Source: a virus (lineage: Duplodnaviria > Heunggongvirae > Uroviricota > Caudoviricetes). From it: a DNA stretch of 23,523 nucleotides. The position numbers were made by a program. Location: IMG/VR virus record IMGVR_UViG_2703718820_000020, positions 1-23,523 of that record; one strand, 5' to 3'. How positions within the stretch are numbered: the stretch's first letter is position 1; every line of letters begins with the position of its first letter. Of the stretch, positions 15,001 through 18,000 are shown one piece after another.

Positions 15001-18000
15001 GCAACAGCTACTCCGGCGAAAGCAAAGAAAATGGCTGCTCTGATAGAAAACTGGACTCCACCTGATGGTTGGTGCAATGGGAATGATCGAGATTGGCACG
15101 AAAAAATGAAGGGCTATATCTGCGATTTTTTACGTAAATGCAACGGCTTCAGGGTGATGTGATATGACCAAAATTAACTATCAGGCACTGCGTGAGGCGG
15201 CAGAACGTGCAATTCCGGCAATGGAACGCCTGTTAATGTTGCCAGTTGATGATGATCTGATAAGCGAACAGGAACTTAAAGATTACGGTGTGGATATTGA
15301 TGCGCTCAACGCCTTCAAATTTCTGGCCGGACCAGAAACCGTGCTGGCACTACTGGATGAGATCAACGCATTAGAGGAAACGCGTATCAACGATGTTTGC
15401 CGTATTGCGGAACTAACAAAACAACTGGAGTTGGCAAAATCAAAACTCAACGAGCAGCGTGAGTATTACGAAGGTGTTATCTCGGATGGAAGTAAGCGCA
15501 TAGCAGAACTGGAAGCGCGGGAAATAAAACCAGCCAAAGGTGAAGTTCTGGTCGTTGTATCTGGTTTTACTGGTTGCGGAAAAAGCGCCATTGCCGGGGA
15601 AATAGAAATCGCGATGAAGGCTATTGGTGTACCGGTTAAGTGGACTAATGGCGATGCAGAAAAGCGCATGACTGGCGCTGACTGGCTGACTGCGATTGAG
15701 ATGTACAAACCAACTGTGCGCATCGTGGAAGTTAATGTGCCCCGCGCCGCTGGCATTCGCATCAAAGGAGGTGAGTAATGCGTATGGCATGTATCGGCTT
15801 GTTACCGTACCCGACTCGTTTTTGGGCTTCTGCGCTAATTGCAAAGCCACATGTCCTGATGGCTGACAACATCATCCCGGCACCAAAGCGCCGCCATACC
15901 GGTATTGCAGCGGCACGACGAGCAGCAAAGAGACGCAGGAGAGCAAAGCGATGAAAAACCGTAAGGCAAAACGACTTTTTTTACAGCGACCTGTGCGTGT
16001 GGTGGAGTTGATTATTAGCAACCATAAGATAGCGGTACTCCATCCATTTGGTCAGGTGGCTTTTGCCGCAAAGCGTAAGCCTACTGCGTCACAGAACAGG
16101 CGGAAGAAAGGGTACGCTGTAAGATGAAAAACCGTAAAGCAAAGATTCTGTTAGTTCGTAGAAACGCTCCTGGCGTCTGGCAGTGGGTGAGACTCAGCAA
16201 CCGACGGATGGGGTTGATGAAATATTACGGGATGATGGATTGTGGTTTTTGCAAAAAGCCCAGCGCGGCGCAAAACCGCTGGAAAAACCACTTGCGCACT
16301 AAAGGAGAGTGATATGGCGTTAACACACCGCGAACTCTGTCAGATTGCGTACAAGTTCCTTAAGCGCAACGGGTTCAAGGTTTGTTTTCATGACCGCTTT
16401 ATAGCTGTAACCAGTACCGGAGAACAGCCAGATGCTATGGGATTCAGAAATTCAGCATCATGCCTGATAGAGGCGAAGTGTTCTCGTGCTGACTTGTTGG
16501 CAGATAGAAAAAAGCGTTTCCGTAAAAATCCCTCACTTGGCATGGGCGACTGGCGATTCTTTATTAGTGAGCCGGAAATTATTTCAGTTGAGGATTTACC
16601 TCCCGGCTGGGGATTACTTCACGTTGTTAACGGAAGAGTACGGAAAGTACATGGGTGGCCCAAGGGTAATTGCTGTTGGGGTAATCCTGACGATAAGCCA
16701 TTTACTGGAAATAAGCAGGTTGAATGCGATTACATGTTATCTGCATTAAGGCGCATGGAGTTGAGAGGGCACCTTAATGAAATATATGACGGTGTGATTG
16801 TTAATAAGAAAGAAGGAAACGCGGCATGATCACTATTACCAAAGGGCGACTGCTGACAATCAAGCAGTGGCGCGAAACATACGGACCGGGTAGCAACGTT
16901 GTACTGCCAGCAGAAGAAGCGGAAGGACTGGCACGGATTGCACTGGCATCATTGGAAGCAGATCCAGTTAAACGAGTTAACTCAGATCAGATGCACCGAG
17001 TCTGCTTAGAAGCTAATCGCTATTTAGATAAATATGACGCGATGGCGAAAGAGGTAAATAAGTTGCTTGGACGCATCGCCCCGCCAGCGCCAGTATTTAA
17101 CGGCGAATACGGTGACGCATATCAGGGCGCTCGTGAAGACCTGTCCATCTGGAAACGGCGAGCGCTTGAAGCTGATGAGCACGTTCGGCGACTGGAGCAA
17201 ATCAATGACCACATGGTGAAAGAGGCGCAGGGAGAATCACGCATGGGCGAGCCTGTAATACGTGAGCCAGCACCGGTAGTGCCTGAAGAAGCAACTCCGG
17301 AAAACGTAGAAATGCTCTCTGGCTATGTTTCAACGTACAAATTAACCGATAGCGAGCGCGATATTGCTGCCGAAATATGGAACGCCTGCCGCACCGCCAT
17401 GCTTCAGTCCGGAAACTTTCGGGAAAGCAAGAATTCGTCAACCAATAATTTTCGGGAAATCCCGGAAGCGTCAACCAGCTCTCCGGTAACTCCGGCTCTT
17501 CTGCCTGGTGGTTTCACCATTGAGGAGGCGAAGGAATTACATGAAGACCTGGTACGCAGCCACATAAGCAAGGCCTTAAGTGGCGAAAAGATGAAAAAGA
17601 AAGATCGCGATGCTGATTTGCGCTGGATTCATGGCGTTATAGTTCAGGCAGCGTGGTTTGTAAAAGCATCACTGGAGCAGAATGCACTATCGGGCAACTA
17701 TCCGGTAACTCCGGATAGTTGGATAAGCTGTAGTGAGCGAATGCCGAAAAAGAATCAGAACGTACTTATTTCGGTGAATTTCGATAGTGATCTGGTTGAG
17801 CCGCTAATATGCTCCGCACGCTATACCGGAAGCACCTTTCGGCGAGGAGAAGCAACGATTAAGCCGGGCAATGGTGTTGAGCAGGTAACACACTGGATGC
17901 CGCTACCAGAACCGCCGCAGGAGGTTAACCGTGGCTAACCTGCAACTTGCCGTCAAAGGTGAATACTTCGCAGATAGTTTCCCCCAAATCTGGGGAAAAG

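Follow-up and report, generated by a model that had tools for sequence, protein, structure and literature searches.

The stretch analysed here, called the window, is 23,523 nucleotides (nt) of DNA from a virus of the Caudoviricetes (IMG/VR record IMGVR_UViG_2703718820_000020, positions 1 to 23,523). Between positions 15778 and 16312 of its plus strand lie three small open reading frames (ORFs), here ORF1, ORF2 and ORF3, which follow an Ea22-like gene and encode predicted products of 6.6-7.4 kDa with isoelectric points (pI) of 11.3-12. A preliminary description of the sequence had proposed that the three are chained genes, and its coordinates, lengths and TAATG and ATGA overlaps were all reproduced. 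We find that ORF1, ORF2 and ORF3 are genuine protein-coding genes under purifying selection, and that they represent a cassette in which a gene of the ORF1 family is paired with one or two genes of the family whose products begin MKNRKAK (hereafter K).

Three overlapping genes under purifying selection

The three genes follow one another without a gap (Table 1). The stop codon of the Ea22-like gene (TAA, 15776-15778) and the start codon of ORF1 (ATG, 15778-15780) form a TAATG junction. ORF1 ends with TGA at 15952-15954, overlapping the ATG of ORF2 at 15951-15953, and ORF2 ends with TGA at 16125-16127, overlapping the ATG of ORF3 at 16124-16126, so that both junctions read ATGA. ORF3 terminates with TGA at 16310-16312, and the next ATG follows one base on, at 16314. 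This chain exceeds chance expectation: when the 535 nt were shuffled with dinucleotides preserved, at least three ORFs of at least 50 codons arose in 15 of 5000 shuffles, ORFs tiling at least 90% of the segment in 2, and two overlap junctions in none.

Table 1. Positions of the cassette genes, their initiation signals and adjoining features in the window
Feature	Position	Strand	Description
ORF1	15778-15954	+	58 aa, pI 12.0, phrog_13831 member
ORF2	15951-16127	+	58 aa, pI 12.0, MKNRKAK (K) family, body type C, tail GYAVR*
ORF3	16124-16312	+	62 aa, pI 11.3, MKNRKAK (K) family, body type A, tail TKGE*
Shine-Dalgarno of ORF1, AAAGGAGGTGA	15764-15774	+	Read from sequence; ~5 nt 5' of ATG
Shine-Dalgarno of ORF2, AGGAG	15937-15941	+	Spacing 9 nt; within the ORF1-tail Arg codons AGA CGC AGG AGA
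Shine-Dalgarno of gene after ORF3, AAAGGAGAG	16301-16309	+	Within the last ORF3 codons (TKGE)
Ea22-like gene upstream of ORF1	15164-15778	+	204 aa; Pfam Ead_Ea22, E 6e-23
171-aa gene after ORF3	16314-16829	+	phrog_631; outside the cassette
cI-like repressor gene	5761-6474

The initiation signals had been described as strong throughout. This was confirmed for ORF1 (AAGGAGGT), while the signal of ORF2 is acceptable and that of ORF3 is only a weak AAAGGG located 11 nt before its ATG. ORF3 would have to depend mostly on termination-reinitiation.

For comparison we used 168 related loci from annotated phage and Escherichia coli records and from IMG/VR, and ratios of nonsynonymous to synonymous differences (pN/pS) were calculated by the method of Nei and Gojobori. 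Across 31 alleles of ORF1 the annotated frame had a ratio of 0.33 and the two other frames 2.19 and 1.16, with 8, 7 and 19 variable sites at codon positions 1, 2 and 3, respectively. For ORF2-type alleles the values were 0.15 (annotated frame) and 1.64 and 4.98 (other frames), and for ORF3-type alleles 0.27 and 0.63 and 2.26 in the same order. Length variants of ORF1 keep the reading frame: 933W-type phages lack 7 codons, and phage Bas106 has 2 additional ones. Between diverged K types, the N- and C-terminal motifs show pN of about 0 at a pS of 0.1-0.6, and the invariant Arg of the QNR motif is encoded by AGG in one paralog type and by CGC in the other. It is because in-frame indels and synonymous changes keep the motifs that we regard these as genuine protein genes; together with the conserved 4-nt overlaps and matches to PHROG families, the frame-specific selection upholds the earlier proposal that the genes are real. 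Absence of the ORFs or loss of frame in syntenic prophages had been named as evidence that would speak against them, and this was not the pattern seen: disruption affects roughly 4% of the K copies in the 168 loci, and one frameshifted ORF1 allele, P0131, is recorded on 95 contigs. Rare Arg codons occur at no unusual level compared with neighbouring genes.

Sequence comparison indicates that ORF2 and ORF3 are paralogs, as had been suggested from their shared MKNRKAK start (37% identity over 54 aa, E 6e-10, BLASTP), and it revealed no relationship between ORF1 and the K family. Profile matches place all three genes in already catalogued families of hypothetical proteins. ORF1 aligns with the hidden Markov model of phrog_13831 over its full length (E 5.7e-41, residues 1-58 on profile positions 1-58), and both K proteins match the 62-position profile of phrog_1380 over its full length (E 1.5e-22 for ORF2 and 1e-40 for ORF3). 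The motifs MKNRKAK.L and SA.QNR.K are invariant in the family alignment and in 40 alleles. Two of the ORFs had been reported as missed by the ORF track; they are indeed absent from it, because 58 aa is below the usual 60-aa length cut-off. The novelty that this implied did not hold up, since the exact proteins, found on hundreds to over 1000 contigs, are deposited in NCBI and UniRef under the labels "hypothetical" or "prophage protein" (ORF3 is identical to WP_000797279.1), and in relatives one or more of the three ORFs is annotated by PGAP or GenBank.

Cassette architecture, junctions and distribution

ORF1 is always followed by one or two K genes, with a 4-nt overlap that is kept in nearly all architectures. 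Within the 168 loci the arrangement found in the window, ORF1-K58-K62, was the most frequent (59 loci), followed by ORF1-K62 (42), a 51-aa ORF1 with K62 (15) and ORF1-K60-K63 (10). Homologs of ORF1 at 56-69% identity retain both the overlap and the K partner. Diverged ORF1-K pairs occur in other settings, namely behind a different Ea22 ending, beside a lysis cassette and in a replication or nin-type region. K genes were also found without ORF1, behind a ParB-like gene in 9NA-like phages and, in a form beginning MATNNRKAK, directly after ea22 in Shiga toxin (Stx) 2a phages.

The neighbours of the cassette vary. Upstream, nearly all of 100 distinct contexts have a member of the Ea22 family; the Ea22 proteins carry at least eight different C-terminal domains and share an ending, AGIRIKGGE*, immediately 5' of ORF1. 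In the window this ending corresponds to the last nine codons of the Ea22-like gene (15749-15775), and the junction that it forms with the ORF1 Shine-Dalgarno sequence is present in most loci. Downstream there are at least ten alternative kinds of neighbour, the 171-aa phrog_631 gene being one of them. The K genes themselves have one of two tails, depending on what follows and independently of the core type: GYAVR* when another K gene comes next (82 of 83 copies) and TKGE* in the last K gene of an array (158 of 158). The stretch cgcaggagagca precedes the K gene in diverged loci too.

The last eight or so residues of each gene are thus a junction module that bears the initiation region of the next gene. 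Shine-Dalgarno sequences are carried by the gene ends AAA GGA GGT GAG and AAA GGA GAG TGA, and by AGG AGA in the ORF1 tail. Because the gene ends are junction modules, part of the terminal conservation is not a property of the proteins. The K.SA.QNR.K segment immediately before the junction is kept in both tail types via synonymous changes, and its conservation is therefore a protein property. We also observed that unrelated genes of the operon end in ...KGGE*, ...TKGE* or ...KGE* (at 15749-15778 and 16289-16312 in the window, and across the related loci); these endings arise because the codons AAA GGA GGT GAG form the Shine-Dalgarno sequence of the next gene. The conserved gene-end junctions look like exchange points of the mosaic. 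The obligate ORF1-to-K pairing, the junction-tail rule and the docking usually behind ea22-type genes are newly described here.

The 535-nt module matched 602 of 5426 complete E. coli genomes (~11%), at 418 chromosomal and 297 plasmid places, and ORF3 and the common alleles of ORF1 and ORF2 were each recorded on at least 1000 contigs. Among phage records, 146 matched the K family and 67 the ORF1 family. The K-bearing phages include 933W, VT2-Sakai, many Stx1a and Stx2a phages, the P1-like RCS47 and phiV10, as well as virulent 9NA-like phages and Av-05. The homology search that had been proposed for the MKNRKAK family led to phrog_1380. Both the K and the ORF1 family are narrow. At 90% identity there are 60 K clusters and 85 ORF1 clusters, all from Escherichia or Salmonella; a K-profile search of 1.84 billion representatives returned 50 matches, of which the genuine ones were short proteins of the same family, and a scan of species-representative genomes with both family profiles gave no confirmed relative. 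Two of the 50 matches, the repetitive proteins P0212 and P0230, were rejected as spurious. The window genes are full members of phrog_13831 and phrog_1380, from which they differ in no respect; sequences identical to theirs occur in Stx phages, P1-like phage-plasmids and phiV10. Neither family has an assigned function, fold or literature: we found no paper with the MKNRKAK motif, the PHROG identifiers or the WP accessions, and none of the three ORFs is named in the papers on the exo-xis region.

Two variants of the cassette are recorded here as separate observations. In Av-05, a virulent phage of the Vequintavirinae, an Ea22-like gene is followed by a degenerate ORF1 of which the Arg-rich tail alone is kept (47 nt, 89% identity), and a separate K homolog lies about 2 kb away (positions 1441-1572 of locus L168 and 1201-1410 of locus L181). 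Pieces of the cassette have thus reached a virulent phage. In O111:H8 chromosomes, the ORF1 homologs P0128 and P0131 represent a frameshifted 61-aa allele in which the basic tail is replaced by the acidic AAIPVLQRHDEQQRDAGEQSDEKP; the 95 contigs with P0131 include complete chromosomes. This type of allele is either tolerated decay or an alternative product.

Possible roles of the cassette products

The window is a lambdoid E. coli prophage whose minus strand carries Q, NinG, a primase and a helicase. Its plus strand carries a string of genes for Rha, RecT (9847), YqaJ exonuclease (10845), DUF2303 and two Ea22-like proteins (14267 and 15164), then the three ORFs, the 171-aa gene, DUF551, AntA, an MT-A70 methylase and the integrase (21614). 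Because this same-strand string runs from recombination genes to the integrase, the cassette belongs to the exo-xis (ea) segment, the accessory part of the early-left operon. It lies on the plus strand directly behind ea22, with recombination genes upstream, the integrase downstream and no internal terminator; a scan of the plus strand from 14000 to 18000 found no promoter or terminator. In lambda and Stx phages, the exo-xis region taken as a whole has effects on lysogenization and induction (PMC4195576, PMC10789677, PMC8614690), and it shifts the lysis-lysogeny balance (PMC4195576, PMC10789677). In 933W, ea22 is split by a gene insertion (PMC8614690). We found that this insertion begins with the 51-aa ORF1 allele and a K gene.

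The cassette proteins share with the known exo-xis proteins (Orf60a, Orf63, Orf61, the TraR-like Orf73, Ea22 and Ea8.5) their operon and position class, between the recombination genes and xis/int; like those, their genes would be transcribed from pL, and all the products are small and dispensable in the laboratory. They differ in having no sequence or predicted-fold relationship to any of these, and lambda lacks the cassette.

ORF1 contains 15 Lys and Arg residues. Its hydrophobic, Pro-containing N-terminal half and its Arg/Lys-rich tail, both noted in the preliminary description, are present; the tail, KRRHTGIAAARRAAKRRRRAKR, has 11 Arg or Lys in the last 22 residues, and diverged ORF1 N-termini retain the hydrophobic pattern. 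The K proteins are hydrophilic (grand average of hydropathy -0.5 to -0.9) and carry three invariant motifs rich in Asn, Arg, Lys and Gln (NRKAK, SN[RH][RK] and SA.QNR.K) around a variable core. In a low-confidence AlphaFold2 model ORF1 forms two helices, the tail helix (residues 40-57) being the best scored, with a predicted local distance difference test (pLDDT) value of 73-76 for the block. The model of ORF3, likewise of low confidence, has a helix at residues 4-13, strands at 19-25, 28-33 and 38-44, and a second helix at 48-59.

Two likenesses to known nucleic-acid-binding proteins were considered. The helix, three strands and helix of the ORF3 model resemble the alpha-beta3-alpha arrangement of the double-stranded RNA-binding domain (dsRBD) and HicA, with similar size and basicity, and in this model the three K motifs would map to helix 1, to the beta1-beta2 turn and to the beginning of helix 2, where a dsRBD contacts RNA. 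As an actual HicA or dsRBD-like fold this was rejected, with hhalign probabilities of 0.35% and 0.06%, no Pfam match at E up to 1 and no structural match of the model to solved dsRBD or HicA structures; identity with HicA was also rejected, the candidate position of the catalytic His being R or H across the family. A zinc finger of the zf-C2H2_jaz type (PF12171) was discarded as well, since it scored 13.3 bits against a cut-off of 22.6 and the Cys residues are non-conserved ones of the variable core. The second likeness is between the ORF1 tail, which is rich in Ala and Arg and helical in the low-confidence model, and the arginine-rich-motif peptides of the N proteins of lambda, P22 and phi21 and of HK022 Nun, which are likewise encoded in a lambdoid early operon. 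This likeness is one of composition only: the motif of ORF1 is C-terminal and not N-terminal, it has no NusA- or RNA polymerase-binding region, and it shows no homology to N or Nun in Pfam or PHROG. Structured RNA was looked for in this region only, and no cognate boxB-like hairpin for ORF1 came to light.

We consider it highly probable that the three ORFs constitute a real, co-expressed protein cassette. The reading that we favour, and rate a little above even, is that it is a mobile accessory cassette of the exo-xis segment whose products, soluble and basic, bind to nucleic acid or to an acidic partner and so adjust early gene expression; a role as nucleic-acid-binding regulators in particular is put forward tentatively. 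From the antiterminated leftward promoter, the cassette, one ORF1-family gene with its obligatory one or two K genes, as found in lambdoid, Stx and P1-like phages, would be transcribed soon after infection or induction. Ribosomes would load at ORF1 and pass on by termination-reinitiation, yielding the proteins in linked amounts. The ORF1 and K products would be soluble, might act together, and would bind RNA, DNA or an acidic host partner; this binding may adjust host or phage gene expression early on, while lysis or lysogeny is being decided, as is the case for other exo-xis proteins. The proposed binding follows from the charge of the proteins, their invariant motifs rich in Asn, Arg, Gln and Lys, the lack of a membrane segment and the operon context.

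Several points weigh against this proposal. High basicity is suggestive and not specific, and some of the terminal Arg/Lys richness is forced by the embedded Shine-Dalgarno sequences (AGG AGA, AAA GGA GAG). The AlphaFold2 models are of low confidence (pLDDT 63-65), no resembling structure was found in PDB or BFVD, no domain for the three ORFs in the Pfam, NCBIfam or PADLOC libraries, and no match in PDB sequence searches with both family profiles. Transcription, translation and binding of the cassette products are steps that we infer from sequence, and Sakai ribosome-profiling supplements held no matching peptide, those cultures being uninduced. Moreover, the disrupted K copies mentioned above are frameshifted or fused, and the frameshifted ORF1 allele P0131 is common, so that the cassette is dispensable in resident prophages.

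Alternatively, the proteins could act through protein-protein contacts, as early proteins of small size that inhibit or modulate a host factor or an anti-phage defence of the host, with the variable K core fitted to variable targets. The early-left accessory regions of lambdoid phages house genes for host takeover and anti-defence, ral and gam among them, and the location of the cassette agrees with this. So do the invariant K termini around several very different cores (pN/pS ~0.5 with pS near saturation), the K copy number of one or two, the presence of the module in virulent phages as well, and its dispensability in resident prophages. We nevertheless judge this rather unlikely, because none of the three had a PADLOC match at E up to 0.1 or a match of an anti-defence type, positive selection was not seen (the ratio was below 1 everywhere), and a pI of 11-12 does not suit mimics or inhibitors of DNA-binding defence proteins, which are typically acidic.

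Peptides that kill the host or act on its membrane, in the manner of Kil or of type I toxins (small membrane toxins such as Hok, Ldr and TisB), and that cause membrane damage or the filamentation considered in the preliminary description, would fit the small size of the products, the hydrophobic N-terminal half and cationic tail of ORF1, and an operon of the type that carries kil in lambda. This explanation is improbable. A membrane-spanning segment usually reaches a Kyte-Doolittle value of about 1.6, and the maxima over 19-residue windows were 1.12, 0.98 and 0.21 for ORF1, ORF2 and ORF3, respectively; furthermore, the hydrophobic stretch of ORF1 includes Pro, Arg and Thr, no signal peptide or lipobox geometry was seen on reading the sequence, and the K proteins are hydrophilic.

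We give an equally low probability to the notion that the ORFs are translated spacers, relaying ribosomes from ea22 to the genes downstream and providing junction DNA for modular recombination, with their amino acid sequence of minor importance. It would account for the junction modules at the gene ends (AGIRIKGGE* across unrelated Ea22 domains, and a K tail set by the next gene), and the K termini have a lower pS than the core, as recombination at the gene ends would produce. Frame-specific purifying selection, however, extends across the whole ORFs, interiors included, internal motifs have survived synonymous and multi-step codon changes, diverged ORF1 N-termini retain their hydrophobic pattern, and the ORF1-K pairing survives different neighbours.

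It is very improbable that the small ORFs are artefacts and that a longer product is the real one, be it the 155-aa orf8, the 230-aa phrog_9263 or a product that joins ORF1, ORF2 and ORF3 by frameshifting. Both phrog_12350 (155 aa) and phrog_9263 contain ORF3 as their C- or N-terminal part, and orf8 is annotated over this stretch in VT2-Sakai. Only 933W-type phages, which have lost a stop codon through a 21-nt deletion, have the long frame open, and in the window it closes at 15866; the off-frames of ORF1 have pN/pS above 1, just one frameshifted allele in about 250 copies gives a 234-aa fusion, and no slippery heptamer was seen before the ATGA junctions on reading the sequence. Finally, a non-coding RNA or DNA site with incidental ORFs, as the 89% identity of the 47-nt ORF1 tail in the otherwise unrelated virulent Av-05 might suggest, is hardly credible given the third-position excess of variable sites and frame-specific selection, a similar ORF1 pS in the tail (0.065) and the rest of the gene (0.074), no Rfam match for the region at E up to 1, and no excess of RNA structure there (folding energy versus shuffles, z +0.5).

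Returning to the reading of the cassette as encoding soluble basic binding proteins, a more specific version of it can be formulated, which we regard as speculative and unlikely as it stands. ORF1 and the MKNRKAK proteins might represent a hitherto unrecognised, obligately paired class of small basic phage effectors, in which an Arg-rich-tail protein and a minimal alpha-beta3-alpha nucleic-acid-binding partner, made in a fixed ratio through translational coupling, would act with or on the pro-lysogenic Ea22 to tune lysis-lysogeny and Shiga-toxin release in Stx phages of the 933W and Sakai type.

Annotation of related records and other features of the prophage

The practical value of these results lies mainly in annotation, as ~11% of complete E. 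coli genomes and the reference Stx2 phages 933W and VT2-Sakai carry the cassette, which is mis-annotated in these phages. In VT2-Sakai, orf8 (155 aa, corresponding to phrog_12350) results from continuing the K frame upstream through ORF1 and into ea22 (locus L169, 1374-2058), and in 933W, L0068 is the next gene with an over-extended GTG start (locus L005, 1038-1758). In both records the real 51-aa ORF1 and 62-aa K genes are unannotated, and PGAP often leaves out ORF1 or ORF2. Two small-protein families under selection are hereby added to the exo-xis region, and if the proteins modulate induction this would have a bearing on Shiga-toxin production. We regard the finding as a solid but ordinary case of conserved phage 'dark matter', to which the analysis adds the selection on all three ORFs, the ORF1-K pairing with its tail rule, and the mis-annotations identified in Stx phage records.

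The 171-aa gene that follows ORF3 gave no sequence match in Pfam, NCBIfam or PDB. A D...EAK motif seen by eye makes its product look like a PD-(D/E)xK nuclease. In relatives PGAP calls this gene as a short 'frameshifted' pseudogene, and the ORF is intact there (locus L001, 2533-3048; locus L003, 3065-3580). The 230-aa phrog_9263 seems to have arisen from a frameshift that fused a K gene to the 171-aa gene.

Upstream of the cassette, the two Ea22-like genes stand in tandem on the plus strand, the first at 14267-14866 (199 aa) and the second as given in Table 1, with a 99-aa ORF (14863-15162) between them. The second contains a P-loop-like segment, GFTGCGKS, and has weak, sub-threshold matches to APS_kinase and AAA_16. 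Between the cassette and the integrase, the plus strand carries the AntA-type antirepressor (18264-18932) and the MT-A70-family DNA methyltransferase (19416-20042). On the minus strand, a HicA toxin gene (7222-7476) and a HicB antitoxin gene (6881-7225) lie between the cI-like repressor and Rha genes; this HicAB pair is a toxin-antitoxin moron inside the immunity region.

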